From the NCBI GenBank assembly GCA_002411005.1, contig DHQC01000009.1, forward strand, positions 36,404 to 100,403: DNA of 64,000 bases, in the 5' to 3' direction. Shown piece by piece: positions 29,509-52,225 of the stretch. Position 1 is the stretch's first letter. Each line of letters starts with the position of its first letter. The translations under genes and the position numbers were made by a program. The notes below the pieces were generated by a model. The model had not been told where the DNA came from. It did not search any database and saw only the letters and a list, made by a program, of their open reading frames with translations. Source of the DNA: Bacillales bacterium UBA5348 (GTDB lineage Bacteria > Bacillota_I > Bacilli_A > RF39 > UBA660).

Positions 29509-29536
29509 TTGAAAACCATCAATTTTATGCTATACT
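29509..29536 (+). promoter_or_regulatory. Candidate promoter of the Tad/T4SS cluster (TTGAAA-16 nt-TGC-TATACT, extended -10)
   Basis: Hexamers at 29509-29514 and 29531-29536, with a TG at -15/-14. Confidence 0.45.
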
Positions 29537-29559
29537 TATTACAGTAGAGTGATATTGGA

Positions 29560-30261
29560 GTGATGAAGCTAATGAAAAAATTGTTATCGTTTTTATTAAT
29601 AATTAGTTTATTTTTAGTTTTCAAACCTAATGTTATCGCTTTAGATACTGCTTGTACACAGGAGGAACGACTTAAATTAAGGCAAACTGCATCTCTCACA
29701 ACTATTAAATATGATTTAATGGATTATGAATATGCTGTGTTTTTTGATGTGACCATATCTGGATTTACTAAGGATATGTATGCAGCTGTGCCTGATGAAA
29801 ATTATGCTTTTTCTTATGTAGAAGGAACTAATACATCAAGGGAAGCCGATTTTACTCCTGGCAAAACCTATAAATTAGAATTTTATGCCACTGATGGGAC
29901 TAAATGCCCTGGAGAAAAAATTTTGACTAAATATCTTCAAATCCCACCTTATAATCATTATTCAAAAAATAAAATATGTGAAGGATATGAGGATTTTGAA
30001 TTGTGTAAAAAACATACTAATTTGTATAAAAGTATAAAAACGGAAGAAGATTTTGTCAAACGAGTTCAGCAATATATTAATTCGGTAAAAAATAATTCTG
30101 CAGACAAAAAAGATAATGACGATAACAAACAAGTTTCATTTTTGGAGAAGACTCTTGTTTTTTTGAACAAGTATTATTTATATATATTTATACCAATAAT
30201 AGTAGTTGGTACTGTTAGTATTATAGTTATTCAAGTACAAAAGAGGAGAAGCATATTATGA
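29560..30261 (+). CDS. Secreted protein with a C-terminal TM anchor, unknown function (first gene of the cluster)
   Basis: Signal peptide (..FKPNVIA/LD), an ectodomain with 5 Cys, and a C-terminal helix followed by QKRRSIL. The start could instead be the ATG at 29563 or 29572. Confidence 0.55.
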   Translation: MMKLMKKLLSFLLIISLFLVFKPNVIALDTACTQEERLKLRQTASLTTIKYDLMDYEYAVFFDVTISGFTKDMYAAVPDENYAFSYVEGTNTSREADFTPGKTYKLEFYATDGTKCPGEKILTKYLQIPPYNHYSKNKICEGYEDFELCKKHTNLYKSIKTEEDFVKRVQQYINSVKNNSADKKDNDDNKQVSFLEKTLVFLNKYYLYIFIPIIVVGTVSIIVIQVQKRRSIL

Positions 30262-33131
30262 AAAAGTTTATTATAATCTCTTTACTTATTTTTAGTGTGT
30301 TTTTTGTTAAAATGAATTCGGCTTCTGCTTTTTATGGTCCATATAATTATGATATTAATCTTATTAGAGTTGTTGATGGGGAACTTTCTCCTGGTGTGCC
30401 TGGTAAAATATTACAAATCTTTGGGTGGGCAGTAGCTAATAATAATAGTCAAAATGCTCATAATATTCAACCGGATTACATACTTCAAATGGTGAATAAG
30501 AATGGGGAAGTTGTTTATTCAACTACAGACACTGCTGGAAAACCAGACTATTCGTCTCCTTCCAGTGATCCGCATGATTTTAATCATTCATATTACGAAC
30601 AATATGCTGGTTTTAAGCATTATACAGATTATCCAACGGATTACAAAAGAGCTATAGCTGTTAGAGATTCAGGAAATTATATGTATATGAATAATAATTT
30701 TGCTTTTGGTGTAGGTTTAGATAAAATAACTAAAATACTTAAAGAAAATGAAGAACTCAGCATGAATTTGGTAATAAATCAAAGTGGTGGGGATAGAACC
30801 GTTTATGGTGTTTATTTTTATCAACCCTCTTTTACTGTAACCATCCCAAACATAAGTGCTCAAACGAGTAGTATTGCAGAATCAGCTAAAAATCTTGATT
30901 TTTTTGAATTGATTGGTTCGGTTACCAAAATCACAACGTTAGTAAATCATGGTATCGTTCAGCGTTCACAAAACTTAGGTGGTCAACCGCGTCGTCCTTA
31001 TACTTACGCTGTACCTGCCGATTTTGATGTTTTAGATAGAATAGTTCAATGGAATAATGTTGCGAGGTACAATATAAATACTTATAAAATTAATTATTAT
31101 ATTAGTGGTGGTCTTGCTTATAATGGCGGTTATCAGATTGGTTATATACCAGCTACCTGGTCAGAACCGTTTCACGGCGGACTAACCCCAGGTCTTAGAA
31201 TAATACCAAAGATAGATCCTTGTGAGACAATTCCTGAATGTATTGCTTTGTCAGAAGATTGCCCTGTGGTATGTTGTGTTGATTTATGTGATGCTGGAGA
31301 AAACGAGGGAAGTGACTTCTGTAATGTTTGTAATGCTCCTGAACCTCCTGAAGATATTTGTCTTGAAGAGGAAGATGCAACGAAACAGTATTGTTGTTAT
31401 CATCCAGAAGATACCGAACTTTGTGAACCAGATGACAATCCAGACGATGATCCAGAGTTTCCATCATATGATTCTGATCCTGATAATAGGTCAGCGGTAT
31501 GTAGTAATTCCGGAACAACAGAAGTTAAATTTAAGTTTCCTAAGGATGGATGGGGTCACACATTAGAAGATAATCAAGCTTGTGTAGTTAGTTGTGAAGA
31601 AGAAATAAAAGTTACTTTCCAACCAACACAATCTGTTAGAGCTGGTATGGGATGGAGTTATCCAATCTCTTCAGATGGTACAAGAATATGTGCAGCATCA
31701 TATAAAAATGTTGAATGGACAGCTAAGATGAATGCGGCAGTTGCTGCTGCAAAAGAAGCTTATAATAATATGAAATCCGCTCTTGAAGATGCCAATGATG
31801 AAGCAACCGATTGTGGTGATAGAGAAAGAGTAGATTTTGTAGTTACTGATTCAGATAGTTGCTGTGAATGTGGTGGATGTTCAGCACATGCTGATTGTTC
31901 TTGCCCAAGTACTAATAGCTATAATAGCAGTAACTACAATACTTATGCTTATTTATTTGATAACATCAAAGAAGAAAAAAACATTATTTTTGCTAAGGCT
32001 AGTTTTAATAAAGGGTATCTTGTGTATAATGTTAATAGACCCTTGCTAGCAGAAGGGGAAGAAGAAGAAGATGAATGCGATATGGGATGTGATTCTGATT
32101 CCTGCAGCAATGATTGTTATGAATATATTTGTTCTGGAAATGGTGACGATTGGGATAGTGGACAATCAGCTGTTAAGAGTGATTTAGGAAGAGCAAAAAC
32201 TTATAAAGATGAGTATGATAATCAGAAAGAAATAATTGATGAACTTAACAGAGATAGAAATACATGCGATAATTGGATAAGTAATAATGTTTATATAAAT
32301 AATTCGGAAACAACTATTAGTATTGATTTGCCTGACCAATCAAGTTATACTTTGACAAGCAATATTTATAGCCCTATAGATAGTTCTTTTGTGAATGGTA
32401 GACTCTTTGAAAGTTCATATGATGTAAAATATTGTAACTATGGTTCACATGGCGTTTCAAAATCTTCATATAACAAATTTAGGACCGGAACTTTTGATAG
32501 AGGAGAATATTGTCTTAGTACATATAATGAAGCGACTATATTTAAGGATTTCTGGGTTGAAAAATCAATTAGAAATATGACTTTTGAATTTTCAACTGAA
32601 TATTATGTTCAGAGATATACAGGTGAATTAGCAACTACGGATTTACCTGGTTATGATTACGATGGACGTTATTCATATACAGATTTCTATACAAGAACTG
32701 GTAGTTATCCTTTCTCGCTTAGTATGACGAGAATCGGGCCAAATCTTGGTACAGTACCAAAATTATGGTCAATAGACCCATTTACTTGTCAATACGAGGT
32801 AGATAATAGAATTTTTCCACCTGATGGCGATGATAATGAACCACCTTATGGAAATGAAGCATTTATGTATAGACAAATATCACTAGTTGATCCTTTTCCA
32901 AATAGATCCCCTGGTGAGAATTGGCAGGGTAAAGAACGTATGATCACATCAAAAGGGTATTCGATTTATGGAGAAGAACCTAAATACGAGATACTTCTTA
33001 ATCCGGGTATAATGCAAGGGATTAGGTCAACATATGGAAATGATTATGGTTCATTTAATATTAATAATCCATATAAGAGTATAATGGTTGAAACATATAT
33101 TAATAATGGCGTCATTAATAAGAGAAGGTAG
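30258..33131 (+). CDS. 957-aa secreted protein with three Cys-rich/acidic islands (candidate pilus-associated adhesin)
   Basis: Sec signal peptide (MNSASA/FY), an ATGA overlap with the upstream gene, no LPXTG motif and no C-terminal anchor. Confidence 0.6.
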   Translation: MKKFIIISLLIFSVFFVKMNSASAFYGPYNYDINLIRVVDGELSPGVPGKILQIFGWAVANNNSQNAHNIQPDYILQMVNKNGEVVYSTTDTAGKPDYSSPSSDPHDFNHSYYEQYAGFKHYTDYPTDYKRAIAVRDSGNYMYMNNNFAFGVGLDKITKILKENEELSMNLVINQSGGDRTVYGVYFYQPSFTVTIPNISAQTSSIAESAKNLDFFELIGSVTKITTLVNHGIVQRSQNLGGQPRRPYTYAVPADFDVLDRIVQWNNVARYNINTYKINYYISGGLAYNGGYQIGYIPATWSEPFHGGLTPGLRIIPKIDPCETIPECIALSEDCPVVCCVDLCDAGENEGSDFCNVCNAPEPPEDICLEEEDATKQYCCYHPEDTELCEPDDNPDDDPEFPSYDSDPDNRSAVCSNSGTTEVKFKFPKDGWGHTLEDNQACVVSCEEEIKVTFQPTQSVRAGMGWSYPISSDGTRICAASYKNVEWTAKMNAAVAAAKEAYNNMKSALEDANDEATDCGDRERVDFVVTDSDSCCECGGCSAHADCSCPSTNSYNSSNYNTYAYLFDNIKEEKNIIFAKASFNKGYLVYNVNRPLLAEGEEEEDECDMGCDSDSCSNDCYEYICSGNGDDWDSGQSAVKSDLGRAKTYKDEYDNQKEIIDELNRDRNTCDNWISNNVYINNSETTISIDLPDQSSYTLTSNIYSPIDSSFVNGRLFESSYDVKYCNYGSHGVSKSSYNKFRTGTFDRGEYCLSTYNEATIFKDFWVEKSIRNMTFEFSTEYYVQRYTGELATTDLPGYDYDGRYSYTDFYTRTGSYPFSLSMTRIGPNLGTVPKLWSIDPFTCQYEVDNRIFPPDGDDNEPPYGNEAFMYRQISLVDPFPNRSPGENWQGKERMITSKGYSIYGEEPKYEILLNPGIMQGIRSTYGNDYGSFNINNPYKSIMVETYINNGVINKRR

Positions 33132-33139
33132 GTAGAAAA

Positions 33140-33544
33140 ATGAAGGAATCATATTGGGGGTTATTCGTTATCATCCTCGGAATTATTGGCATTTCTATGT
33201 TAAATGTTTTACAAAATGTCACAACAACGAATGAAAATAACTACTATCTTCTAAAAGAGGTGACTGAGGCTTCAATGTTTGATGCTGTAGATTTAGGTCA
33301 TTATCGTAAGACAGGCGAATTAAAAATAATAGAGGATAAATTTGTTGAAAACTTTATGCGTAGATTCTCTGCATCTTATGGAAGAACAACGACATTTAAT
33401 GTAGGGATTTATGATATAATAGAATTACCGCCTAAGGTAAGCTTGGTTGTGGAGGTGGGTCAAAGTTTAAAAGTGTATAATTATGAAGCTGTAGATTTTG
33501 ACATTACTAACAGAGTTGATGCTATCTTAGAAACAAAATATTGA
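33140..33544 (+). CDS. TadE-like pseudopilin candidate (134 aa)
   Basis: Short charged leader MKESYWG followed by a 20-aa hydrophobic segment. Same size and layout as the ORF at 37492-37896. Confidence 0.45.
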   Translation: MKESYWGLFVIILGIIGISMLNVLQNVTTTNENNYYLLKEVTEASMFDAVDLGHYRKTGELKIIEDKFVENFMRRFSASYGRTTTFNVGIYDIIELPPKVSLVVEVGQSLKVYNYEAVDFDITNRVDAILETKY

Positions 33545-33560: not shown

Positions 33561-34412
33561 ATGAAAAATTTAATATTTAATGTTAAAAAGTTCTTAACTA
33601 ACAAAAATTCAGTTACAATCATAGGTGTGTTCTTAGGTATTTTAGTCTTGTATGTTGGTTATAATTATCGTGTACAACAAGCTATTAAACCAGAAAGAAT
33701 ACCTTATGCTCTAACAACTATTCAACCACGACAAAAAATTACAGAGGATATGGTGGGGTATACCAACGTTCCACCTGCAATGATTATGGGAAGCGTTATG
33801 CAAAATGCCAATCTTATTGTTGGTAAATATGCTAACTACAACACTATAATTCCAGAAGGAAGTTTATTCTATTCTGACACAATTATTGGTGCATCTGAAT
33901 TGCCTGATTCAGCTTTTATTGATATTCCAGAAGGAAACGTTCCTTTTAGTTTACCGGTAACAGTTGAAACTACTTATGGTAACTCGATTTTCCCAGGTAA
34001 CTACATTAACATTTATTTTAAGGCTCTTGATGAAGAGGGTAAAGTAATAGTAGGTAAACTTGTTGAAAATATTAAAGTATTAGCTGTTAAAGATACTGAT
34101 GGTAAACATGTTTTTGAAAACACAGATGAAGATAGAAAATCACGTTTTATTATATTTGCTGTTCCTGAAGAATTACATTTAATGCTTAGAAAAGCTTTTT
34201 ATTTAGGTCAAGATCAAGATATAATGGCAGCTATTATTCCTGTACCTAATACTGAATCTTATACTACTGATGTTGGCGCAGTAACTATAACAAATCAATA
34301 TTTAAAAGCTTTCATTGAAATTAATACAGGTTTTGTGCCAGAAGATGAATTGCCAGAATTGAATGAAACAACTCCGCCAATTTTGGATGAAACAACTCCA
34401 CCAACAGAATAA
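33561..34412 (+). CDS. cpaB: CpaB/RcpC-like Flp pilus assembly protein (SAF domain)
   Basis: N-terminal TM helix, a SAF-like segment (IPYALTTIQPRQKITEDMVGYTNVP), and an RcpC-like beta region (NIKVLAV). The C-terminus carries an ETTPPxxxETTPP repeat. Confidence 0.65.
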   Translation: MKNLIFNVKKFLTNKNSVTIIGVFLGILVLYVGYNYRVQQAIKPERIPYALTTIQPRQKITEDMVGYTNVPPAMIMGSVMQNANLIVGKYANYNTIIPEGSLFYSDTIIGASELPDSAFIDIPEGNVPFSLPVTVETTYGNSIFPGNYINIYFKALDEEGKVIVGKLVENIKVLAVKDTDGKHVFENTDEDRKSRFIIFAVPEELHLMLRKAFYLGQDQDIMAAIIPVPNTESYTTDVGAVTITNQYLKAFIEINTGFVPEDELPELNETTPPILDETTPPTE

Positions 34413-34430: not shown

Positions 34431-35531
34431 ATGTACGCAGATAACTTATTTTCAAATATCGATTTTGGGCCTATAAAAGAATACATAGATAATGATGATA
34501 TAACCGATATTTCCTATAGTAATAATGGACAATTATGGTTAAAAAGCCTATCTCAAGGTGTTTATAGAGCTGAAAATCAAAGTGTAAATAATGCGATGAT
34601 TGAAAAAATTGCCTTTCAGTGTTCTAATATTATGGGTAAAACATTTAATATGGCCCATCCCTTTCTAGATGCTGAGAGTGCTGAATTACGTCTTAACTTT
34701 GTTCATGATTCAATCGCAAAAAATGGTATAGCATTGGTTGTTAGAAAAACCCCTGCTAAAATCAGACTAAAGAAAGAAAAAATAATTGAAGAACGTTATA
34801 TTACCGAAGAACTTCATAATTTCCTTATCAAATGTGTAGAAGGTTACTGTAACATCATTGTAAGTGGTGAAACAGGCTCTGGTAAAACTGAATTTGTTAA
34901 ATATTTAGCTTCACATACTAAGGAAAATGATAAACTTATTACAATAGAGGATACTTTGGAATTACACTTAGATAGAATCTTTCCTCATCGTGATATTGTT
35001 GCAATGAAAACAAACAACATTGCGTCTTATTCTGAGGTTCTTGTAACTTGTATGAGACAAAACCCTAAATGGATACTATTATCAGAAGTTCGTAGTGCAG
35101 AAGCTGTTACAGCTGTACGTAACTCAATATCTTCTGGTCACAAAATCCTATCAACAATTCATGCTGAGAGAGCACAATCTATACCTCATCGTATGTATAG
35201 TTTGCTTGAAACAAACCTTGACTTAGACCAATTTTTGAAATCTATTTATAGGTATATTCAATTAGGTGTCCATGTCAGAGGATATATGGATAATACTGAG
35301 GGTAGGTTTAGACGTGAAATAGTTGAAGTATGCGAGTTTTATGTTGATAAAGATAATAATCCTCAATACAATATTATTTATCGTAAGACAACAGAAGGAC
35401 ATGTTATGCAAAATAATCCGTCTCAACAATTAGTTGATTATTTATCTACTAGTGGTGTTATAGTTGCTCCAGATGTTTTTGTTAAACAAGAACCGCAAGC
35501 ACCACAAGAACAAGTTGAAATTTTAATTTAA
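34431..35531 (+). CDS. tadA: CpaF/TadA-family secretion ATPase (T2SSE/VirB11 superfamily)
   Basis: Walker A GETGSGKTEF, ITIEDTLEL Asp box, Walker B ILLSEVR, and His box SGHKILSTIHA. Confidence 0.85.
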   Translation: MYADNLFSNIDFGPIKEYIDNDDITDISYSNNGQLWLKSLSQGVYRAENQSVNNAMIEKIAFQCSNIMGKTFNMAHPFLDAESAELRLNFVHDSIAKNGIALVVRKTPAKIRLKKEKIIEERYITEELHNFLIKCVEGYCNIIVSGETGSGKTEFVKYLASHTKENDKLITIEDTLELHLDRIFPHRDIVAMKTNNIASYSEVLVTCMRQNPKWILLSEVRSAEAVTAVRNSISSGHKILSTIHAERAQSIPHRMYSLLETNLDLDQFLKSIYRYIQLGVHVRGYMDNTEGRFRREIVEVCEFYVDKDNNPQYNIIYRKTTEGHVMQNNPSQQLVDYLSTSGVIVAPDVFVKQEPQAPQEQVEILI

Positions 35532-35550: not shown

Positions 35551-36450
35551 ATGGAACTGTTGATACTTTCTTTTATTGCTATGTACGTTATTATATATCG
35601 TAGGAATAAAGGACAAAATGTTTATCGTTTTATAATAAATCAAGCATCATCTATATACGAAAAATATGCGCCATATTCGTTTAAGAGTGTAAGTGCTAAA
35701 GCAAAAGAATTGAAGCAAGATTATACAATTAGACAATATACAATTCAAATTGTTATTTTTGCTGGTGGTGCGTTTATAATTTCATGGTTGTACTTTTACA
35801 ATATCTTTATAAGTATCGTATATTGCTTAATTGCTGTATCATTTATTCCTTACCTGGCATATTTGAGATACAAGAAAATATATAGTGAATTCATATTTGA
35901 GCAAATTCAAGTATATACAACTAACACAATTATGGAGTTCTCTGTTACAGAATCATTCGTTAAAGCTCTAGAAGGGGTATATTCGTCTGGTGTGTTAGAG
36001 GATCCAGTATCCACTGATGTTAAGTATATGATTGATTTATCATATCAAAATGGTTCTATTGATGAAGCTATTGAGTATATGAATGGTAAATATGATTTTT
36101 ATATGGTTCGTAATATGCATCAATTATTTTTACAAGTTACTAAAGAGGGTTCAAAAAATGCTGCTAAAGAATCACTTGATAATATGTTACTTGATATAGA
36201 TACCTTAGTTGAAGGTGTTTATACCGATAGAATGAATCGTGATACTTTCCATAAATCTTTTGTACAGTATGGTTTAATGTTATATCTTCTCGTTATGCTT
36301 GTTCAATACATGTTAGGTGTTGATGCTTACATAAAGCTGTTGGAATCGATGGTTTATGTTAAGGTTCTCCTTCATGCTATTATCATTATTAACACGTATT
36401 TCCTTATTAATGGGGAAAAATATTATAATGAGAATGTAGGTGCTGAATAA
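35551..36450 (+). CDS. tadB: TadB-like platform protein (T2SSF domain)
   Basis: TM helices flank a helical cytoplasmic domain with the GspF-like pattern (..SFVKALEGV.., ..GSIDEAIEYM.., ..EGSKNAAKESL..). Confidence 0.6.
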   Translation: MELLILSFIAMYVIIYRRNKGQNVYRFIINQASSIYEKYAPYSFKSVSAKAKELKQDYTIRQYTIQIVIFAGGAFIISWLYFYNIFISIVYCLIAVSFIPYLAYLRYKKIYSEFIFEQIQVYTTNTIMEFSVTESFVKALEGVYSSGVLEDPVSTDVKYMIDLSYQNGSIDEAIEYMNGKYDFYMVRNMHQLFLQVTKEGSKNAAKESLDNMLLDIDTLVEGVYTDRMNRDTFHKSFVQYGLMLYLLVMLVQYMLGVDAYIKLLESMVYVKVLLHAIIIINTYFLINGEKYYNENVGAE

Positions 36451-37232
36451 TGGAAATGATATTAATAGGTATTATAGCCTTTGGTGTATTGGAATATCAC
36501 AAAAAGATAAGCACTAATAAATTTATTAAAGATAACGTTCAATATTTTACAATTCTAAAAGAAGATGATTATGACTTCTTAGTAAAAGCTAAATATGGAG
36601 AAAGTATGGATCCTGAGGTGTTATATTCAACAAGAGTAAAGAACACAGGGATTGTTTTAATAGCTTTGGTATGTTTTTTCTTATATGATTTTTCATTTAT
36701 AAATATGTTATTAGCATTTGTTCTTGGATATTTATATTTTAAAATGCAATACAATAGTTTGAAATCTTATTATAAGAAGCATTTGCATCAAATCAACTTA
36801 AAATTACCATATTTTCTAAAAACAATGGAGATATTAGCGCAACACTATACAATTCCAGTTGCATTATCAAGATCTATATCTTCTTCTCCTGATATCTTTA
36901 AACCAGGACTAAGAGAATTAGTAGAAAAAATAAACGCTGGTGATTCATCAGTTGAACCTTATATGGAATTTGCAAAACAATATCCGGTAAGTGATTCGGT
37001 TCGTATGATGAGGCTTTTATATCGTTTAGGTTTAGGTGGCCAAGAGGAGAAACATGAGCAGTTAATTATGTTCTCAAGAGGTGTATCTTCTTTACAAAAT
37101 AAAGCTAGAGATCAAAAATATAGAGATAGATTAAAAGTAATGGAAAACAAGACATTTGTTATGTTAGGTGTAACGGGTGCAGGTGTCATGATATTATTAT
37201 TATTGTCAGTTGTACAGATGATGCAATTTTAA
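36450..37232 (+). CDS. tadC: TadC-like platform protein (T2SSF domain)
   Basis: Its start overlaps the tadB-like stop (TAATGG). GspF-like helical domain (LPYFLKTMEILAQHYTIPVALSRS.., ..AGDSSVEPYMEFAKQYP) and a C-terminal TM helix. Confidence 0.6.
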   Translation: MEMILIGIIAFGVLEYHKKISTNKFIKDNVQYFTILKEDDYDFLVKAKYGESMDPEVLYSTRVKNTGIVLIALVCFFLYDFSFINMLLAFVLGYLYFKMQYNSLKSYYKKHLHQINLKLPYFLKTMEILAQHYTIPVALSRSISSSPDIFKPGLRELVEKINAGDSSVEPYMEFAKQYPVSDSVRMMRLLYRLGLGGQEEKHEQLIMFSRGVSSLQNKARDQKYRDRLKVMENKTFVMLGVTGAGVMILLLLSVVQMMQF

Positions 37233-39777: not shown

Positions 39778-39866
39778 ATAAGTTTTAACTATAAGAACAT
39801 TTTGTTTATAAAAAAACAAATAAAATGAATGTTAATTAATATTTTAAAAGCAAGGGGATGATGTTA

Positions 39867-41462: not shown

Positions 41463-41649
41463 TATGATAGTTAAAATTAAGAGGCAAAAAAGCGCCTTTT
41501 TTCTTTTGAAAATAAATTTCAAAGATTATTACAAATCTTTTTTAAATTATAACGATTTTCAGTTTATAAATGTAAAAAAACAAAAATAATTATGTTGATT
41601 ATACTTCGTATTATATGGTATACTTGTAATGTATAAGTGGGTGGTAATA

Positions 41650-44619: not shown

Positions 44620-45145
44620 ATATACTGAAGACTGGATACCTGTAAAATCAATTACTAATGGTATGATTGTACTAGATGATAACACAAAAGTAACAGGTGT
44701 TAAAATAACACCACGTAACATCTTCATTTTAGATGAAGAATCACAGTCTAGTATTATTAGTAATTTAAAAAACTTTTACAATAGTCTAGATTATGAATTT
44801 TGGTTAATGGTGGCAGATAGACCGGTTGATATTACATTATATCTATCGCAATTACAACTTTTGTATAATAATGTCCAAAATAATCAAATTAGAAAATTAA
44901 TTGCTCAAGATGTTGAAAAAGCTAATGATTTTGCAAGTAACAATGTTGTTGACACGGAGTATTATCTTTTATTTAAAGAAAAAAATCCTGAAATTATTGG
45001 AAAACGCATTAGGGCGATCATAAATAATTTAGCAGCTTGTGGTCTTAATTGTTCACAAACAACTAATGATGATTTAAGAGTTATTTTAGATAATTTCTTA
45101 AATGGAGGTAATACTACAGAGTTTGGGACGGTGATGCCTTTATGA
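44594..45145 (+). CDS. VirB4 N-terminal domain encoded as a separate ORF
   Basis: TEDWIPVKSITNGMIVLDDNTKVTGVKITPRNIFILDEESQ resembles the N-terminal region of Firmicutes VirB4/PrgJ/TcpF-type ATPases. Its TGA stop overlaps the next ATG (ATGA at 45142-45145). Confidence 0.55.
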   Translation: MKDKKTRSKYTEDWIPVKSITNGMIVLDDNTKVTGVKITPRNIFILDEESQSSIISNLKNFYNSLDYEFWLMVADRPVDITLYLSQLQLLYNNVQNNQIRKLIAQDVEKANDFASNNVVDTEYYLLFKEKNPEIIGKRIRAIINNLAACGLNCSQTTNDDLRVILDNFLNGGNTTEFGTVMPL

Positions 45146-46929
45146 ATCTAAAATCACAATTAGCTCCGAAAGGATTAAATTTTAACTCGGGTGATTTTGT
45201 TATTAGTGATAAATATTCAACAATTTTAACTGTTATTGCATATCCAAAAGTAATAACAGCAGGTTTTTTAGCATCATTGACAACAATGTCTGGTATCAAG
45301 ATTGTTATTAAGCATATCCCTATTGATTTTGGTGTTTTATCAAAAATGATTAATCGTCAGATTGCTGATTTAAAAGCTAAATATCAAGAAGAAAGAGATA
45401 GAACTGTTCAGGAAAGACTTAGACAAGATATGGAATCTCTTGAATATTTTATTAGTATGTTAGCAAGTAGTCAAGCTCGTATTTTTGATTTCCAAATGCA
45501 CGTAATGATTACGGCTGATAGTAAGGAAGAATTAGAATTAAAAAAAGTAAATGTGAAGAATTATATGACGGCAATGGAATTAAAGGCAATTCCTCTTCGT
45601 TTTGAACAAGAGAAGGTTTTAAAATCAATTGTTCCGATATTCCCTAAACAAGATATTGAAGATCGTATAGGAACACCTATTCCTTCAGTTACAATAGCAG
45701 CAATGTATCCATTTATTTTTGATAGTATAAAAGATCCTGGCTTAGCTGCGTTACTTGGTGTTGACTTCTCTGGTGGTGTTATTTTATTTAATCAATTCTT
45801 ATTTCAAATTAAGAAAGAAAATAACCGCAATAACGCTAACCTTATTATTTTAGGTACTTCTGGTTCTGGTAAATCAACAACAGCTAAGTTAATGCTTAGA
45901 ACACATATAAGAAATGCTTATAAAGTTGTCGCAATTGATCCAGAAGGTGAACTTGAGGATATGTGTAATTTATATGGTGGTAATTTTGTTGACCTTGGAA
46001 AAGGTGGAGACTTCGGGATGGTTAACCCACTCGAAATAGTCCTTGATGCAGATGAAGAAGAAATTGCTCAAGGCCTTGGTTATACGGTTTTAACAAAAAC
46101 GCTACAATTTTTAAAAGCATTTATGAAATATTATGACCCAAGTATTGAGGAAGATGTATTAACACTTTTTAGTGAGGTTGTTCAAGATACATATAAACGT
46201 TTTGGGATAGATTTCAATACTGATTTTTCTAAATTTACAACTAAGGATTATCCAACTTTTTCAGATGTTTATGCAACAATTAAAGGTCGCATGAGTCAAT
46301 ATATGGAAAAAACACACGAGAGTGACATTATGGAACGTCTTGAGTTAAAAATTAGACCTTTGACTAAAGAATTAAAATATTATTTTGATGGACACACAAC
46401 AATAACTGACACAGAAAACAATATAATAGTTTTTAATATTAAAGAGGTAATGAATACTGATGTCAATATTAGGAATGCCTTGTTCTTCAATATTCTAAAA
46501 TATGCATGGGGCTTATGCCTTGATAAAAGTGTAAATACAGTTTTATCAGTTGATGAAGCCCACGTATTGTTAAGCGGTAATAATACTTTAGGTGCTGAAT
46601 TTTTAGCACAAGTACAAAGACGTGCAAGAAAATATAATACAGGTACGATTATTATTACACAACAACCGAGTGATTTTACTGATGCAATGGTTATCACTCA
46701 AGGTAAGGCTATCTTTGATAATGCCTCATATTACATTGTTATGGGACTTAAAAAACAAGCTGTTGAGGACCTGTCAAACTTAATTGATTTAAATGATAAT
46801 GAAAAAGAAAGTATCAAGAGATATGGACAAGGAGAAGCACTCTTTGTTTGTGGAAATAGAAGAATGAGAATAAATGTTGTCGCTACTGAGGCTGAATTAG
46901 AATCATTTGGTAGTGGCGGAGGTTTTTAA
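45142..46929 (+). CDS. virB4: VirB4-family conjugation ATPase (C-terminal ATPase part)
   Basis: Walker A GTSGSGKSTTAK, Walker B VLSVDEAHVLL, and the IIITQQPSDF motif. Confidence 0.85.
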   Translation: MNLKSQLAPKGLNFNSGDFVISDKYSTILTVIAYPKVITAGFLASLTTMSGIKIVIKHIPIDFGVLSKMINRQIADLKAKYQEERDRTVQERLRQDMESLEYFISMLASSQARIFDFQMHVMITADSKEELELKKVNVKNYMTAMELKAIPLRFEQEKVLKSIVPIFPKQDIEDRIGTPIPSVTIAAMYPFIFDSIKDPGLAALLGVDFSGGVILFNQFLFQIKKENNRNNANLIILGTSGSGKSTTAKLMLRTHIRNAYKVVAIDPEGELEDMCNLYGGNFVDLGKGGDFGMVNPLEIVLDADEEEIAQGLGYTVLTKTLQFLKAFMKYYDPSIEEDVLTLFSEVVQDTYKRFGIDFNTDFSKFTTKDYPTFSDVYATIKGRMSQYMEKTHESDIMERLELKIRPLTKELKYYFDGHTTITDTENNIIVFNIKEVMNTDVNIRNALFFNILKYAWGLCLDKSVNTVLSVDEAHVLLSGNNTLGAEFLAQVQRRARKYNTGTIIITQQPSDFTDAMVITQGKAIFDNASYYIVMGLKKQAVEDLSNLIDLNDNEKESIKRYGQGEALFVCGNRRMRINVVATEAELESFGSGGGF

Positions 46930-47021: not shown

Positions 47022-49175
47022 ATGAACGAATTATATGAAAAAGCAAAAAAGGCTCTAAGTTCTAAAATTAAAAATAAGGCACTTATATATATAATTTCCT
47101 TTTTGGCACCATTTTTTCTTTTTCTTTTTACAGTAGTTATAATAATTATGATGTTTATGATGCCTGTAACCCAAGCCTTAGAAAAAATAGATAACTTTAA
47201 AAGGTTTGTTATTGTTTTTGTTGAAAAAACAAAAAACTTTTTTAGCGGTCGAGGATTTCAAGTGATTGATATGACTACAGTTCAGTTGAAAGAGGAAGAG
47301 TTTAATAATGAGGTAGCTAAGTATTATAAATTTTACTATTATACAGGTGGCGTTGAAGTCGATGCCCCTCTTATTTTAGCTACTGTTCACTATCCACTTG
47401 AAATAAGTTTTAATGAAAAAGTGGTTGCCTGTGTAAATGGAATTGATGCAGAAGGTACAGAATGTGCTTCAGAGGAAGAGCAATATGACTTTTGGAAAGC
47501 TAAAATAGAGAAAGTTCCAGATTTATTTGAACATAGTATATCGGAGGTAATTACTAAATATGAATGTATAGGTGTTACGGTAGAGACTGCCGATGGCCCT
47601 AAAACACACTATGTACAGGGTGATCAGATTGGTGAACCTGAAGTGCTTTATCCTTTTCCGGGAACCTTTCATAAAGATGAGCATTGTCACAGTGGTTCAA
47701 GCATAAAGAAATATGATTATAGACAAGAGCCAGATAAATACAATGAATATCTTAGTGATCCCGATGATGGTTATATTGTTAGCAGTGAAGAATACAATTT
47801 TCCTACTGAAATAACTGATATTGAAGAGAAGAAAGAAAGACTCAAACAAATAGTATATAGTATTCACAATTTATCTATTCTTTATTATAACTTATTTGAT
47901 ACCCCCGCAGCAGTTGCACAGAATGTATATGGGGCAATACCATATAATTTATTGAAGAACATGGTTGTTCCCGTCGATCCTACTATAGGGAGTGATGGGA
48001 AAGGTAATTACATAATAACTTCTTGTTTTTCACCTTATCGGTCATTAAGCAATGGTCAAAAGTCTGCCCATAAAGGGATAGATGTAGTTTCCGCTTCTTC
48101 AGATTTAAATATTAGAGCGGCAGCAAAAGGGATTATTTTGGTGGCCCAAGGTTCCCTTTCGCCATCCTTTAACTGTTACAATGGTGATTGTAACAAAAAA
48201 GGTGCCGGTAATTATATTGTAATAACACACGAAATAGAAGGCATACAGTTTAGAACAACATATATGCATTTATCTAGTGTTTCTGTTAATGTTGGTGATG
48301 AGGTTGAAGCAGGACAGATAATAGGTGTTATGGGCAATACCGGTAATTCTAGTGGGACGCACCTTCACTTCCAATATGAAGATGCCAATCAAAACCCTTT
48401 AAACCCGGGCAACTTATTTTCTAATCCAAAGTCGATAAACGCAAATGCTGGTTGTTCAGTTATGTCTGTTGATTGTGCTAATAGAAATGCTCCAGTTGCG
48501 ATAAGCCCTACATACGCAAAATGGGGCAAATCGTCTTATACGATAAATGTAGAAGTAAATGGCATGGCACCAATACCATTAGAACAGTATATTTTAGGTG
48601 TTGCTATAAACGAGATGGGTGGTTCATTTAATATAGAAGCAATAAAAGCTCAAATGGTAGCAGCAAGGACATATACATTTGGTAGCCAAAGATTTAGTTA
48701 TTCTATACAAGAAGCACAGAATCAAATAGTTGTTAATGTAGGGGCAGCAAGTGAAGCAACTCAAACATTTAATTTAAATGGTTTATGTTCATCTAGTGCT
48801 GAGGCTCAGTCTAAATTAATATCAGCCTTGGAAGGAAGCCGTGGGCAAGTATTAGTAACCAGTAAAGGGAAGATGTTTTCGTCCGAATATTCAAGCTACG
48901 CAGCAAATGATGGCTATAAAACTAGAGGTAGCGGATATGTCTGCAAATTGCCAGAACTATCATCAGGATGTGAAAATGTTGCATCGTATGCTACAACGAG
49001 CAACTGTCGACCAAATGGAAGTAACATATGTGGACATGGTAGAGGAATGAGTCAATGGGGAGCTAATAACATGGCAAATAATCATGGATATGATTATACT
49101 TCCATATTAAACCATTTCTATTATGGGAACATTACTGATATAAGTGGTTTAGATATAAGCGACTATGCTAAGTAG
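47022..49175 (+). CDS. Membrane-anchored bifunctional cell-wall hydrolase: M23 (LytM) peptidase plus SpoIID-type lytic transglycosylase domain
   Basis: N-terminal TM helix. M23 motifs HKGIDV and GNTGNSSGTHLHFQ. SpoIID motifs YILGVAINEMGG..EAIKAQMVAARTY and CGHGRGMSQWGANNMA. Confidence 0.8.
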   Translation: MNELYEKAKKALSSKIKNKALIYIISFLAPFFLFLFTVVIIIMMFMMPVTQALEKIDNFKRFVIVFVEKTKNFFSGRGFQVIDMTTVQLKEEEFNNEVAKYYKFYYYTGGVEVDAPLILATVHYPLEISFNEKVVACVNGIDAEGTECASEEEQYDFWKAKIEKVPDLFEHSISEVITKYECIGVTVETADGPKTHYVQGDQIGEPEVLYPFPGTFHKDEHCHSGSSIKKYDYRQEPDKYNEYLSDPDDGYIVSSEEYNFPTEITDIEEKKERLKQIVYSIHNLSILYYNLFDTPAAVAQNVYGAIPYNLLKNMVVPVDPTIGSDGKGNYIITSCFSPYRSLSNGQKSAHKGIDVVSASSDLNIRAAAKGIILVAQGSLSPSFNCYNGDCNKKGAGNYIVITHEIEGIQFRTTYMHLSSVSVNVGDEVEAGQIIGVMGNTGNSSGTHLHFQYEDANQNPLNPGNLFSNPKSINANAGCSVMSVDCANRNAPVAISPTYAKWGKSSYTINVEVNGMAPIPLEQYILGVAINEMGGSFNIEAIKAQMVAARTYTFGSQRFSYSIQEAQNQIVVNVGAASEATQTFNLNGLCSSSAEAQSKLISALEGSRGQVLVTSKGKMFSSEYSSYAANDGYKTRGSGYVCKLPELSSGCENVASYATTSNCRPNGSNICGHGRGMSQWGANNMANNHGYDYTSILNHFYYGNITDISGLDISDYAK

Positions 49176-49203
49176 GTAAATAAATATATTTATAGAGGGT
49201 GTG

Positions 49204-49902
49204 ATGAAATTGCTAAATTTAAAAAAGTTAATATTGATGGTGATGTGCATATTTTTATTATCTGGTTGCGATGTTGCATATGACTTAAAGATTAATAAAG
49301 ATTTAACTGTTACCGAAGAAGTTGTTGCACTAGAAGATAAATATTTTAATGATTTAGCTCACGATTATTTACTTGATAGAATATCAGTTGCATTTTCTAG
49401 TCGTTATGATGAGTTATATGAATATAGCGCAATATCAGAGGATACCAGAATAGGCAATAAAGTTGTCAGAAATTATAATTCATTAAATGAATATAAAGAA
49501 CAAAGTAATGTTTTTCTCGATTTAATCGATAATTATACCATTACTGAGACTGCGGATACTGTTAATTTTAATATAATTGTATCTGACGATATATATGATA
49601 CTAACGATATGGCTTATACCATTATTCCTGAAAATATGACTATAAATATAGAATTACCATATAAAATAATCAATACAAATTCAGATACAAAAACTGGTAA
49701 TATTTACAGTTGGAAAATTGATAAAGATCATAGATCTGCTAATATTATGTTAAGTTTTGAAAAAAATAGACTTAGTGATACCTTATATATTTTGAATATT
49801 GGCATAAGTTATGGTATATTAATAGCAGTAGGAATTATTTTGACAGCAAGTGTTATTGTTCTTGTTATATCCAAAAAAATAAGAGGAATAAATAAAATAT
49901 AG
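49204..49902 (+). CDS. Lipoprotein with a C-terminal TM anchor, in the positional equivalent of PrgL/VirB8-like
   Basis: Lipobox LLSG/C and a C-terminal helix followed by KKIRGINKI. The VirB8-like idea rests only on gene order. Confidence 0.45.
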   Translation: MKLLNLKKLILMVMCIFLLSGCDVAYDLKINKDLTVTEEVVALEDKYFNDLAHDYLLDRISVAFSSRYDELYEYSAISEDTRIGNKVVRNYNSLNEYKEQSNVFLDLIDNYTITETADTVNFNIIVSDDIYDTNDMAYTIIPENMTINIELPYKIINTNSDTKTGNIYSWKIDKDHRSANIMLSFEKNRLSDTLYILNIGISYGILIAVGIILTASVIVLVISKKIRGINKI

Positions 49903-49915
49903 GAGTGCGATTTAT

Positions 49916-52225
49916 ATGAAATTTAAATTTAGAGCTGATACTAAAGATATAATCTATTTTGTAATATTTGCCGTGTTTCTTTTGTACTTAGTAGCTATTG
50001 CAATTTTAAATTTAGCATCTTTAGCACAAAGAACTACTTTTTATGGTTGGAATCCAATAGAGGCTTTTTCGCCACAATTTATTGGCCCTACTTTAATTTT
50101 TTATATTTTGTCACTAGTAGGAATTATTGTTTCTGTTTCAAGTTATTTTTGGGATAAGGAAAAAGGGTTTGGCTTCCAAACGGGGAAACCTGAAAAGAGC
50201 GATTATTCTAGATGGGCAAAAGATGAGGAAATAAAAACAAAACTTAAAGAGGTTAACGTATCGCAACCAACGCTTCCTTATGCTGGTATTCCGTTACTTG
50301 TTAAAGGCAAAAGAGTATGGGTAGATGATAGTGAAGCGCATACCTTGATAATGGGTTCAACAGGTAGTGGTAAAACAACAAGATTAATTAATCCATTAAT
50401 TAAGATTTTAGCTAAAAAGGGCGAATCAATGATTCTAACAGACCCTAAAGGCGAACTTTATGAGGAAAACTCTACAATGCTTATGGCTAAAGGTTATAAT
50501 ATTGTTTTATTAAACTTACGTAATCCTGAAAAAGGTAATGCATGGAATCCACTTACTTTACCATATCAATTATATAAAGAAGAATCAGATAAAGCTAATG
50601 AGTTATTAGCGGATTTAGCGATAAGTCTCCTTCATGATGACAAAACAGATGATCCATTTTGGCAAAACTCATCAGCTGACTACTTTACAGGATTAGCGTT
50701 AGGTCTTTTTGAAGACGCTAAAGAGGAAGAAATTAATTTAAATTCAATCAGTTATATGAGTGCAGCTGGTGAAGAAAAATACGGGGGATCAGTCTATGCT
50801 AAGGAATATTTTTCGAGCAAGGACCCTTCAAAGCCAATATATATAAATGCTTCAGGAACAATTAATGCACCTCAAGATACAAAAAACAGTATATTATCAG
50901 TGTTTAGACAAAAAATTAAGATTTTTGCAACGACTGAGCATCTATCTGAAATGTTATCATATAGTGATTTTGATATGAAAGATATTGGCCGTAGAAAAAC
51001 AGCAGTATTTATCATTATACAAGATGAGAAAAAGACGTATCATGCTTTAGCAACAATTTTTATAAAACAATGTTATGAAACATTGATTGATGTAGCTCAG
51101 GATAATAATGGTAAACTTCCTATTAGGACAAACTTTATCTTGGATGAGTTTGCTAATATGCCGCCTTTAAGAGATGTTACAACCATGATTACTGCGGCTC
51201 GCAGTCGTCAAATTCGTTTTAATTTAGTAATCCAAAACTTTTCTCAATTAAATCAAGTATATGGCGCTGATGATGCAGAAACAATTAAAGGCAACTGTGC
51301 TAATTTAGTTTATTTAATGAGTAAAGAGCTTAAGGCCTTAGAAGAAATAAGTAAACTTTGCGGAGAAAAGAAGGTAAAAGGTAAGGGCGATAAAGACCCA
51401 GATAAAGATAAACCGTTGATTAGTATAAGTGAATTACAAAGATTGAAAATGGGTGACGCAATAATTATCAAAGATAGATCATATCCATTAAAGACAAAAC
51501 TACCAGGTATGTGGGAATATGATTTTAATGAGCCTAAGTCAACTCAAATTAATTATCCAGTGCGCCAAAAAAGAATTGTTAAACTATTTGATATAAAAGA
51601 ATTTGTTAACAATCAAAGGATGAATGCATATCCAAATGGTAATGTGTTTAGCCCTAATATGTTTGATCCACGTTTTGCGGGAGGGATGAATCCTGCTATG
51701 GGTAATACTGATCCATCTCAATTTTTACCACCAAACAATCAATTAGGAAAGCATAATCTTGATGCTACTCCACAACCAAATGCAGGATATAATCAGAACT
51801 TTTTTAGCAATCGTAATAAAGCTAATATGTTTAATGGTGATGATTCATTTAATGTAGATGATTTAATTAAGAAAATTGATGCTAAGATTGCTGAATTAGA
51901 GGCTGAGGAAAAAAGAGAAGAGGAAAATAACGCTGCAGCAACGAATGCTTCAGCGAACAGAACACAAGCAGAGCCGACTAAACCACAGTTTGTTCCAACC
52001 CCACCTGTCAATCCAGTGATCGAAGATATAAAACCTGTTGAACCTATGGCTGTTGAACAAAAGCCTGTTGTTACGAATCCTCAATTTATAGAACCAGAGG
52101 TTGAGGAAGAAGAAACTATTGTTAATATTAATCCTGATATTGATAAAATAATGAATTCAACTTACGAGGATGAAAATACTGATGACCAGTTCTTTGATGA
52201 CTTCTTTAGTGATGATGATGAATAA
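49916..52225 (+). CDS. virD4: VirD4/TraG-family type IV coupling protein with a Pro/Asn-rich, acidic C-terminal tail
   Basis: Two N-terminal TM helices, Walker A MGSTGSGKTT, Walker B FILDEFANMP, and a tail ending DDQFFDDFFSDDDE. Confidence 0.85.
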   Translation: MKFKFRADTKDIIYFVIFAVFLLYLVAIAILNLASLAQRTTFYGWNPIEAFSPQFIGPTLIFYILSLVGIIVSVSSYFWDKEKGFGFQTGKPEKSDYSRWAKDEEIKTKLKEVNVSQPTLPYAGIPLLVKGKRVWVDDSEAHTLIMGSTGSGKTTRLINPLIKILAKKGESMILTDPKGELYEENSTMLMAKGYNIVLLNLRNPEKGNAWNPLTLPYQLYKEESDKANELLADLAISLLHDDKTDDPFWQNSSADYFTGLALGLFEDAKEEEINLNSISYMSAAGEEKYGGSVYAKEYFSSKDPSKPIYINASGTINAPQDTKNSILSVFRQKIKIFATTEHLSEMLSYSDFDMKDIGRRKTAVFIIIQDEKKTYHALATIFIKQCYETLIDVAQDNNGKLPIRTNFILDEFANMPPLRDVTTMITAARSRQIRFNLVIQNFSQLNQVYGADDAETIKGNCANLVYLMSKELKALEEISKLCGEKKVKGKGDKDPDKDKPLISISELQRLKMGDAIIIKDRSYPLKTKLPGMWEYDFNEPKSTQINYPVRQKRIVKLFDIKEFVNNQRMNAYPNGNVFSPNMFDPRFAGGMNPAMGNTDPSQFLPPNNQLGKHNLDATPQPNAGYNQNFFSNRNKANMFNGDDSFNVDDLIKKIDAKIAELEAEEKREEENNAAATNASANRTQAEPTKPQFVPTPPVNPVIEDIKPVEPMAVEQKPVVTNPQFIEPEVEEEETIVNINPDIDKIMNSTYEDENTDDQFFDDFFSDDDE

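Follow-up and report, generated by a model that had tools for sequence, protein, structure and literature searches.

[quoted passage not shown] Southlakia epibionticum the chromosomal T4SS is reported to be essential for epibiotic growth (PMC12102498). Among conjugative plasmids, the 42-kb tra region of pAW63/pXO2 has a "VirB11" part that corresponds to a pairing of Tad-like and T4SS genes, with VirB11, VirB4 and VirD4 all present in the pAW63 tra region (PMC1196294). R64 and PAPI-1 use a type IV pilus together with the T4SS for mating-pair formation or transfer (PMC12857230). The view that Gram-positive T4SSs are pilus-less, from which the earlier note on this DNA started, is now outdated (bioRxiv 10.64898/2025.12.18.695078), and the cluster described here itself has three VirB2-like genes.

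This cluster occupies positions 29560-52225 of the window (the whole 64,000-nucleotide stretch that was analysed) and consists of a Tad-like pilus module (Module 1, 29.5-38.9 kb) followed by a Gram-positive T4SS module (Module 2, 38.9-52.2 kb), the latter being a monoderm T4SS of MPF-FATA-like type. By analogy, its closest precedent is the Patescibacteria T4SS: both are monoderm, MPF-FATA-like and chromosomally fixed in a reduced-genome uncultured lineage, both have a TrsD-like gene adjoining VirB4, divergent VirB2-like pilin arrays (PF18895) and an M23 peptidase, and both lack a relaxase in hosts that also encode type IV filaments. In the cluster, however, VirD4 is linked and always retained while it is mostly unlinked in Patescibacteria, a Tad-like module is physically joined, and the nearest named relatives of VirB4 are found in Erysipelotrichales and on Bacillales/Mycoplasmatota plasmids rather than in Patescibacteria. 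The IncI plasmid R64 and the PAPI-1 island likewise encode a T4SS together with a separate type IV filament, but both are diderm mobile elements with relaxases, which the cluster is not, their pilus is of type IVb rather than Tad-like, and the sequence relationship does not go beyond the superfamily level.

Gene content and boundaries of the cluster

The cluster is an unbroken series of intact genes on the + strand, as the earlier note had described, although the number of genes is 22 rather than the 21 it counted because VirB4 is split into an N-terminal gene and an ATPase. The ORF listing also bears out the junctions it gave: genes overlap by ATGA at 30258 and at 45142, and TAATG lies at 36448-36452. 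The flanking trmL (SpoU_methylase), rhodanese and tRNA-Cys genes are confirmed as housekeeping bounds, while the trmL terminator amounts to a weak AT-rich hairpin as judged by eye. Before the first gene lies a promoter-like site, TTGAAA-16-TGnTATACT (29509..29536, + strand, consensus match only); TTGACA additionally occurs at 29495.

Module 1 opens with a protein of 233 aa that its sequence features mark as secreted and anchored in the membrane by its C-terminus (o01, 29560..30261) and that has homologs in 59 related loci, and with a 957-aa Cys-rich surface protein with a signal peptide (o02, 30258..33131); neither has a match in a Pfam profile search. The latter evolves fast (orthologs are 26-44% identical) and has a large protein at the equivalent position in plasmid relatives, and it may be regarded as a candidate pilus-associated adhesin. 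It is followed by a pilin-like DUF5411 protein (o03, 33140..33544; Pfam 1.4e-50), in which the leader MKESYWG and the hydrophobic helix after it are conserved, and which has a pBMB67 homolog at the equivalent position (profile E 6e-8).

Two of the Tad hallmarks claimed earlier pass Pfam directly. The CpaB/RcpC-like pilus assembly protein (o04, 33561..34412) scores 31.2 bits against RcpC where the Pfam cutoff is 28.8, and its profile matches CpaB/SAF proteins encoded on plasmids (1e-43 and 2.5e-42), with a match to TIGR03177 at 1e-10 that falls under the NCBIfam model cutoff. The CpaF/VirB11-family secretion ATPase, i.e., the pilus motor (o05, 34431..35531; Pfam T2SSE 4.8e-26), has VirB11 and a TadA-family conjugal-transfer ATPase as best NCBIfam matches, and its Walker A GETGSGKT, Glu and His-box residues are invariant.

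The remaining assignments, namely both "T2SSF" proteins, the 54-aa "Flp", "TadE" and "TadZ", have no match in Pfam or NCBIfam, so that indirect tests were needed. The first polytopic membrane protein (o06, 35551..36450), a TadB/T2SSF-like platform candidate with no direct Pfam match, hits a PGAP-annotated T2SSF-family gene on a Parageobacillus plasmid by tblastn (E 2e-4), the same gene being matched by its family profile at 5e-11. This links o06 to the T2SSF family at the level of sequence; its AF2 model was too low in quality for use. For the second polytopic protein, a putative TadC-like platform (o07, 36450..37232), no direct T2SSF match was found in Pfam or NCBIfam, and in both pBMB67 (8e-12) and the Parageobacillus plasmid (5e-9) its profile matches the gene after the platform gene.

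The candidate Flp-like major pilin (o08, 37297..37461, 54 aa) has the leader MKEATG followed by ELNMTVITVIAIAAIG; across lineages its N-terminus is nearly invariant and its C-terminus variable, and it does not have the canonical Flp motif G/XXXXEY. Next comes a 134-aa minor-pilin-like protein (o09, 37492..37896) with the leader MRESVG, a hydrophobic helix, and no match in a Pfam search, which is duplicated in many lineages. Two or three minor pilin-like proteins have the same type of leader as the Flp-like pilin, M-K/R-E-x-x-G.

The last protein of the module (o10, 37917..38903) combines a flavodoxin/receiver-like domain with a ParA/MinD-type domain whose Walker A is degenerate (AGSTT). Its AF2 model (pLDDT 81.5) returns HypB, MeaB and ParA in Foldseek along with a two-domain match to 3FKQ, the TadZ of E. 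rectale, at E 8e-4, and its P-loop region aligns weakly with an AAA_31 protein of pBMB67 by hhalign. The predicted structure supports a TadZ-like assignment at the level of fold.

Relative to canonical Tad/Flp (type IVc) systems, including that of monoderm Bifidobacterium, the module shares a CpaF/TadA-superfamily ATPase, CpaB/RcpC, two platform-like proteins, the TadZ-like two-domain fold of 3FKQ, and a short pilin plus minor pilins whose short leaders end in Gly. It differs in that only the RcpC and T2SSE models exceed their family cutoffs, the Flp motif is missing, no prepilin peptidase (TadV) is found within the window, and the module sits within loci of conjugation type.

Module 2 begins with VirB2-like T4SS pilins that the earlier note had missed: a two-helix hairpin protein (o11, 38939..39277; Pfam T4SS_pilin 7e-5, 23.2 bits), a paralog recognised by jackhmmer grouping (o12, 39417..39752), and a third directly 5' of the VirB6 gene with a signal peptide and N-terminal extension (o14, 41629..42153; 1e-5, 26.0 bits). 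The PF18895 scores of 23-26 bits are just below the threshold of 26.6, and jackhmmer places all three in one family. A promoter-like site with an 11/12 match precedes the second (39366-39394). Between the second and third pilin genes lies a 534-aa lipoprotein (o13, 39858..41462) that is hypervariable even among near-identical MAGs, with a 413-aa and a 159-aa gene in its place at one related locus (L002).

The T4SS hallmarks claimed earlier hold throughout, by Pfam for VirB6, VirB4, the hydrolase and VirD4 and by a pBMB67 profile match for VirB3/PrgI. The VirB6/TrbL-like channel protein (o15, 42174..44273; TrbL_4 2.1e-8) has a long Ala/Gly/Gln-rich C-terminal extension. The 106-aa VirB3/PrgI-like membrane protein (o16, 44299..44619) matches by profile the PGAP-annotated PrgI protein of pBMB67 (4e-6) and the equivalent Mycoplasmatota plasmid gene (5e-10). 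The detached N-terminal part of VirB4 is a 183-aa TraC/TrsD-like protein (o17, 44594..45145; PF26593 TraC-like) whose profile matches the gene 5' of VirB4 on pBMB67 at 1e-21, and the 595-aa VirB4 ATPase itself (o18, 45142..46929; P-loop_TraG 5e-16, AAA_10, DUF87) is 74-89% identical across the clade. The cell-wall hydrolase (o19, 47022..49175), with M23 endopeptidase and SpoIID domains (Pfam 7e-22 and 3e-12), is by its predicted domains the VirB1/PrgK analog. A lipoprotein with a C-terminal anchor follows (o20, 49201..49902), weakly LppM-like at 2e-4, which is under the Pfam family cutoff, and the series ends with the VirD4 coupling protein (o21, 49916..52225; T4SS-DNA_transf 3.8e-53, TrwB_AAD_bind, TraG-D_C), which has a low-complexity acidic tail of roughly 200 aa.

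Plasmid relatives and chromosomal inheritance

The joining of a Tad-like module to a Gram-positive T4SS, presented earlier as unusual, is already found on pBMB67 of Bacillus thuringiensis (NC_009841), which is typed as conjugative and has a MobP3 relaxase, on a Parageobacillus thermoglucosidasius plasmid (NZ_CP063416), where the gene order is the same, a MobQ relaxase adjoins the modules and VirD4 is present, and on a Mycoplasmatota bacterium plasmid. Profiles built from the cluster match the plasmid CpaB, ATPase, both platform proteins, VirB3, split VirB4 and VirD4, with values for Bacillales plasmid proteins spanning 1e-9 to 1e-88, and by these profile comparisons both modules are shown to be homologous to plasmid tra regions. 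As the pairing recurs on conjugative plasmids, the composite would therefore have been inherited from conjugative elements rather than assembled here.

Compared with the pAW63/pXO2/pBT9727 family, pBMB67 and NZ_CP063416, the cluster shares both modules and VirD4 and, with the Parageobacillus plasmid, a gene order that runs from a large surface protein through a DUF5411-like protein, CpaB, the secretion ATPase, two membrane proteins and small pilin-like genes to TrbL/VirB6, VirB3/PrgI, VirB4 and the hydrolase. Unlike the cluster, the Bacillales plasmids have partition genes in addition to a relaxase (MobP3 or MobQ), and a ParA-like AAA_31 ATPase of canonical type is encoded between their CpaB and motor ATPase genes; in the cluster the P-loop of the TadZ-like protein is degenerate, its gene stands after the pilins, and VirD4 is at the far end. 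VirB4 is less than 30% identical to the plasmid copies, and the cluster is inherited vertically as part of the chromosome whereas the pBMB67, pAW63 and Parageobacillus copies are on plasmids.

Copies of the motor ATPase with 70-86% identity occur in at least 550 species-level genomes, all of them uncultured Bacilli, "Mollicutes" or "Tenericutes" MAGs, Ca. Fimihabitans (RF39) included. Gene order is conserved across hundreds of species, often with the same flanks (identical in six MAG or metagenome contigs), and sequence conservation resembles that of housekeeping genes. Sequence comparison thus shows clade-wide vertical inheritance in uncultured Bacilli including RF39, and the earlier description of a fixed, intact chromosomal machine rather than an ordinary ICE stands. 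The new finding is that the cluster forms a conserved chromosomal gene set, the module join itself being already known.

Competing readings and a proposed mechanism

We consider it probable, from the sequence comparisons, that the cluster is a domesticated, chromosomally fixed tra apparatus of the pAW63/pXO2/pBMB67 kind that now serves as a pilus-assisted, contact-dependent transfer machine. The strongest competitor, which we think unlikely, is that two independent systems are simply neighbours, a Tad-type pilus for adhesion or colonisation and an uncoupled T4SS. Independent transcription of the halves, which the earlier note had set against its own idea, is partly indicated: a terminator-like hairpin with a T-run lies between them (41479..41500, + strand) with promoter-like sites downstream, and in about 10-30% of lineages they are at different loci, the Tad half being followed by Dus/LysRS or UvrA in some and the T4SS half preceded by TrmB, tRNA synthetases or MurC in others. 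The two halves therefore need not act together, and many bacteria have Tad pili acting alone. Most lineages nevertheless retain both together (the other half is adjacent in 33/50 ATPase-anchored and 36/40 VirB4-anchored loci), the pairing recurs inside tra regions on plasmids of three distant hosts, and the cooperation in R64 and PAPI-1 gives a precedent for joint action. The hairpin and split loci argue against one obligate operon and not against functional pairing.

Less likely still is a ComB- or Ced-like import machine through which an auxotroph with a reduced genome would take up DNA for transformation or to obtain nucleotides. The system is chromosomal and without a relaxase, strong reduction and numerous auxotrophies are described for RF39 (PMC12306168), ComB is a precedent for T4SS-based import, and in Liberibacter DNA uptake is proposed to depend on Tad (PMC8513845). 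On the other hand, VirB4 is followed by VirD4 in 38/38 loci, and VirD4, which ComB lacks, recruits export substrates; at 60803-61183 the same window also encodes a pilin N-terminus of canonical ComGC type, which hints at a separate competence pilus.

Very improbable, and largely refuted already, is a mobile element of the usual sort (an integrated plasmid or an ICE, with relaxase and integrase beyond the examined stretch): its closest characterised relatives are all on relaxase-carrying plasmids, GC is slightly raised (0.30-0.37 vs. about 0.28-0.30), which might fit a foreign DNA origin, tRNA-Cys lies just 3', and a decayed, split serine recombinase lies 12 kb upstream, but the conservation and flanks described above count against it, ZIP transporter, aminotransferase, glycosyltransferase and trmL genes separate the recombinase from the cluster, which is on the 5' side of tRNA-Cys and not at its 3' end, and no relaxase, integrase or replication gene was found within 29560-52225 (as the earlier note had claimed), no direct or att repeats bracket the cluster, none of 160 related loci (2.54 Mb) has a MobP3, MobQ or serine/tyrosine recombinase homolog, and plasmid and phage collections hold no near-identical DNA.

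In the domesticated transfer apparatus that we favour, the filament would make or tighten contact with a neighbouring cell, the hydrolase would open the wall, VirB4 would power assembly of a VirB6/VirB2 conduit, and VirD4 would pick a cytoplasmic substrate for export through it. With roughly even chances this substrate is protein or DNA, the latter by way of an unlinked or unrecognised relaxase; one could be present elsewhere in the genome, as the search covered MobP3 and MobQ near the cluster loci. Having lost its own mobility, the machine may have been exapted for host-beneficial, contact-dependent transfer, and its clade-wide retention in small-genome gut Bacilli (RF39 and relatives) suggests a core cellular use.

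Gene content of the cluster

The cluster is a continuous series of plus-strand genes in the ORF listing, running from 29560 to 52225 in a window with a GC content of approximately 30%. The tight junctions claimed in the earlier note (ATGA overlaps at 30258 and 45142, TAATG at 36448-36452) are all present, and the co-directional run it described is also found, with 22 genes rather than the 21 counted there because VirB4 is split over two genes. The first of these is a TraC/TrsD-like gene corresponding to the N-terminal part (44594-45145, plus strand, 183 aa; PF26593 in the precomputed annotation), while the ATPase part comprises 595 aa. The run is bounded by housekeeping genes on both sides, as the same note stated, with DUF6568 and the SpoU/TrmL methyltransferase upstream and rhodanese, tRNA-Cys (52701-52774), an acyltransferase, an iron-dependent repressor and Nramp downstream.

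The second half carries the parts of a monoderm (MPF-FATA-type) type IV secretion system (T4SS), namely VirB4, VirD4, VirB6/PrgH, VirB3/PrgI and a wall hydrolase adjoining VirB4, and the assignments originally made from sequence alone are upheld here by Pfam. VirB6 (42174-44273) matches TrbL_4 at 2e-8, the VirB4 ATPase matches P-loop_TraG, AAA_10 and DUF87, the hydrolase matches Peptidase_M23 and SpoIID, and the VirD4 coupling protein (49916-52225) matches T4SS-DNA_transf at 3.8e-53 along with TrwB and TraG-D_C. For the 106-aa VirB3/PrgI-like protein the support is a profile link, as its family profile matches the PGAP-annotated PrgI of plasmid pBMB67 at 4e-6. Overlooked in the first inventory were three paralogous two-helix, VirB2-like proteins at 38939, 39417 and 41629, which score 23-26 bits against T4SS_pilin (PF18895; threshold 26.6). 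The gene at 41629 directly precedes VirB6, a placement that fits a preprint (bioRxiv 10.64898/2025.12.18.695078) reporting that most Gram-positive T4SSs encode VirB2-like proteins beside virB6 and that these are essential in pCF10. VirB2-like genes number 1 to 4 per lineage in related loci (L019-L085). Two low-complexity regions were also observed: VirB6 is extended at its C-terminus by about 300 aa with a high content of Ala, Gly and Gln, where local GC rises to 0.37 and accounts for long spurious antisense ORFs at 43010-43766, and VirD4 has a tail of about 200 aa with an acidic end run (..DDFFSDDDE).

In the Tad-like half, direct profile support extends to three genes only. The DUF5411 gene matches its Pfam family at 1e-50, the CpaB-like protein passes the Pfam RcpC cutoff (31.2 bits vs. 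28.8), and the ATPase matches Pfam T2SSE at 4.8e-26 with conserved Walker A, Glu and His boxes. The best NCBIfam matches of the ATPase are VirB11 and "TadA family conjugal transfer-associated ATPase"; these and TrbB all score under their cutoffs. Its sequence fits a hexameric secretion ATPase of the TadA/CpaF type, as expected of a Tad system, with none of these three subfamilies singled out. The CpaB-like gene also carries, at its 3' end, a 24-nt tandem repeat (34352-34399) encoding PELNETTP/PILDETTP.

The remaining five Tad-like assignments have no Pfam or NCBIfam match and were then tested indirectly. For the two putative platform proteins, o06 and o07, PDB profile searches were likewise empty, and an AF2 model of o06 from a 42-sequence alignment (pLDDT 56) was too poor for a fold search. 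A tblastn search with o06 matches a Parageobacillus plasmid gene annotated by PGAP as T2SSF family (E 2e-4), and the o06 family profile matches this same gene at 5e-11. When the o06 and o07 families were pooled with four plasmid proteins into a set of 47, Pfam T2SSF matched 6, a count for the pool as a whole, in which matching members were not distinguished and one of the plasmid proteins was already annotated T2SSF. On both pBMB67 (8e-12) and the Parageobacillus plasmid (5e-9), the o07 profile matches the gene that comes after the platform gene, which together with position is its only link. Comparison of o06 and o07 by hhalign aligned the N-terminal helix only, giving no evidence that the two are paralogs, and hhalign of either against the platform proteins of a Mycoplasmatota plasmid was not significant.

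A better model was obtained for o10 (AF2 pLDDT 81.5). Foldseek places its C-terminal domain among SIMIBI NTPases (HypB, MeaB, ParA), and the two-domain match is 3FKQ, the Eubacterium rectale TadZ structure, at E 8e-4 with a low TM-score (0.30). The Walker A lysine is lost (AGSTT), and a PDB profile search with the family gave nothing meaningful. The predicted structure is thus TadZ/CpaE-like at the level of fold only, with a receiver-like domain and an atypical ParA/MinD ATPase.

The 54-aa protein (o08), the 134-aa protein (o09) and the DUF5411 protein share the start M-K/R-E-x-x(x)-G followed by a hydrophobic helix, with N-termini nearly invariant across lineages and variable C-termini, and on this pattern they appear pilin-like. 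In the 54-aa protein the short charged leader MKEATG is followed by ELNMTV; the Flp processing motif G/XXXXEY is absent (no EY). A prepilin peptidase (TadV/CpaA, A24) has no candidate in the cluster, and none was seen in the window, where flanking ORFs were scanned in part. Taken together, the direct and indirect evidence justifies the description "Tad-like type IV filament module" and not a strict "Tad system". The earlier reading of this half as a Tad system is supported for RcpC/CpaB, the T2SSE ATPase and the TadZ fold; the Flp motif that such a system should have is absent. In the related loci L019-L085, the minor-pilin-like gene (o09) occurs as two tandem copies in many lineages, and the short pilin gene (o08) does so in several.

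Distribution, conservation and separability of the two halves

The exact VirB4 protein is found on nine MAG or metagenome contigs, with identical flanks in the six shown. In a species scan using one genome per species and the ATPase as anchor, the locus is present in at least 550 species, and across the best 80 of these at least 550 loci the ATPase is 70-86% identical. Carriers among the matches listed are all uncultured "Bacilli", "Mollicutes" or "Tenericutes" MAGs, including Clostridium sp. CAG:609 and Ca. Fimihabitans intestinipullorum, the latter placed in the order RF39 in GTDB (PMC8035907). Iterative profile searches on related loci show that gene order is kept from o01, the first gene, through VirB4. 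T4SS core genes are reached in 33 of the 50 ATPase-anchored loci having at least 9 kb downstream, and a metagenome scan anchored on VirB4 gives the reciprocal picture, with Tad-like genes upstream in 36 of 40 loci having at least 9 kb upstream and VirD4 downstream of VirB4 in all 38 of 38.

Conservation of the neighboring trmL (60-85%) is matched or exceeded by that of the ATPase (70-86%) and VirB4 (up to 89%). The variable parts are the large surface proteins and pilins, even between near-identical MAGs. This conservation of cluster parts is consistent with purifying selection. In a comparison of window positions 39858-42153 with positions 4608-7083 of a related locus (L002), taken from MAGs whose neighboring genes are 98-100% identical, a 534-aa lipoprotein is replaced by genes for 413-aa and 159-aa proteins, and the VirB2-like pilins and VirB6 are only 77-87% identical. 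The interval is a local diversification hot spot in surface-exposed parts.

Promoter-like sites occur downstream of a hairpin and T-run at 41479-41500 that resemble a terminator. In some lineages Dus/LysRS or UvrA follows the Tad half, which then sometimes includes the VirB2-like genes, and in others a stand-alone T4SS half has TrmB, tRNA synthetases or MurC upstream. The hairpin and the split lineages together indicate that each module can occur apart from the other and that the two are probably separate transcription units; the separated modules are both still chromosomal and relaxase-less. The earlier note had treated independent transcription of unrelated halves as fatal to its idea of a single machine, and here separate transcription is probable while the loci themselves are split in some lineages only. 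In one lineage with a stand-alone T4SS half (L131), a 1517-aa protein (77-4630) with FHA and FtsK/SpoIIIE domains, an architecture resembling EssC of type VII secretion, is encoded upstream of the pilin/VirB6 genes, no more than about 1.1 kb away and with three or four small ORFs between.

Mobility and plasmid ancestry

The nearest recombinase was rejected as the integrase of the cluster on two grounds: housekeeping genes lie between them, and related loci lack the gene. This large serine recombinase, the only recombinase in the window, is frameshifted into 16540-17319 (Resolvase and Recombinase) and 17310-18137 (Zn_ribbon_recom) and lies just after tRNA-Gly (15875-15948). GC falls to 0.21-0.25 around it, and the interval 15875-20326 looks like the decayed remnant of a tRNA-integrated element unrelated to the cluster.

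The proposal that the cluster is a fixed machine and not an ordinary ICE is supported by the mobility tests. Searches of plasmid and phage collections returned no near-identical DNA, no direct repeats bracket the cluster, and it lies 5' of tRNA-Cys rather than at the 3' end of this tRNA gene. No relaxase was found in the cluster or among the scanned ORFs of the window, and phmmer searches of 2.54 Mb from 160 related loci, covering two MOB families near the cluster, found no MobP3, MobQ or serine/tyrosine recombinase. The terminal integrase, att direct repeats and patchy distribution of an ICE are not observed, nor are the relaxase and oriT required for the label "conjugative", in the scanned window ORFs and, with respect to MobP3 and MobQ, the 160 loci.

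The joining of a Tad module to a Gram-positive T4SS, presented previously as the main novelty, does not survive comparison with plasmids, as three of them carry both modules. On pBMB67 of B. thuringiensis (MobP3, typed conjugative) the genes run from VirD4, TrbL, PrgI, TraC-N-like and VirB4 through a large protein, a DUF5411-like protein, SAF/RcpC, an AAA_31 ParA-like ATPase and a T2SS/T4P/T4SS ATPase to two membrane proteins, a small protein and DUF4320. On the Parageobacillus plasmid MobQ and VirD4 come first and the two modules then follow in the order of the window; both modules are also present on the Mycoplasmatota plasmid. Profiles built from the chromosomal clade match the plasmid genes for CpaB (1e-43), the ATPase (9e-43), both membrane proteins (about 1e-12), TraC-N (1e-21), VirB4 (5e-88) and VirD4 (3e-81); the nearest plasmid VirB4s are less than 30% identical. 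Despite this low identity the plasmid loci decide the matter: the composite is an inherited trait of a family of Gram-positive conjugative elements and not a new join. In the 42-kb tra region reported from pAW63/pXO2/pBT9727 (PMC1196294; PMC9673590), the shared plasmid block is the "VirB11" part, and the closest known system by ancestry is the pAW63/pBMB67-type tra region.

PLSDB/MOB-suite types the Parageobacillus (NZ_CP063416) and Mycoplasmatota (CP074574) plasmids as non-mobilizable, yet the former has a MobQ relaxase, VirD4, VirB4 and the full Tad-like module, and the latter VirB4 and the Tad-like module. This plasmid family therefore seems poorly covered by current typing models.

Likeness to Patescibacteria and possible roles

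By status, the closest known system is the chromosomal T4SS of Patescibacteria, which is relaxase-less, includes TrsD, VirB2 arrays and M23 peptidases (PMC12102498), and without which one species cannot grow epibiotically (PMC12102498; PMC12857230). The cluster shares with this exapted type its chromosomal location, the lack of a relaxase, TrsD by VirB4 and arrays of VirB2-like genes; the split of VirB4 into a TraC/TrsD-like protein and an ATPase is also shared with the pGO1 subclass. The nearest named VirB4 relatives belong to Erysipelotrichales and to Bacillus and Mycoplasmatota plasmids (at most 34% identity), with no Patescibacteria among the 20 nearest cluster representatives checked, so this looks like an independent domestication. 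A literature search on RF39 with T4SS, Tad or pilus found no description of the system, and the new aspect is its clade-wide fixation in an abundant, uncultured gut lineage with reduced genomes.

With the identity and ancestry of its parts established, we can suggest how the machine might operate. The filament would mediate contact, the hydrolase, VirB4, VirB3, VirB6 and VirB2-like proteins would build a conduit, and VirD4 would select a cytoplasmic substrate, either DNA or protein. Since VirD4 is retained universally, export is favored over import of the ComB kind. Elsewhere in the window, a 126-aa ORF at 60803-61183 begins like a classical type IV/ComGC-type prepilin (..NKKAFTLIEVLATIVILGV..), which suggests that competence has its own machinery and implies a separate competence-type pilus, with a prepilin peptidase somewhere in the genome.

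A more speculative reading, to which we give only a small chance, is that RF39-type Bacilli depend on contact with bacterial or host cells of the gut, and that the pilus and T4SS form their core interaction apparatus, delivering effectors to a partner or extracting resources from it, in convergence with the essential T4SS and type IV pili of epibiotic Saccharibacteria. If true, this would go some way to accounting for the reduced genomes and for why these organisms have not been cultured alone.

Common in the gut and uncultured, RF39 and its relatives have very small genomes and many auxotrophies, and at least 550 of these species keep an entire conjugation-type machine together with a Tad-like pilus, with no relaxase found. 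The ATPase, VirB4, VirD4, variable pilins and adhesins are targets for questions of lifestyle and resistance to culture, and unannotated families such as DUF5411 and the "VirB11 region" of the pAW63/pXO2 tra locus gain a role and a context. After Patescibacteria, this would make a second large example in which a T4SS has become a core organelle of the cell, here with its origin in a different, identifiable plasmid lineage.
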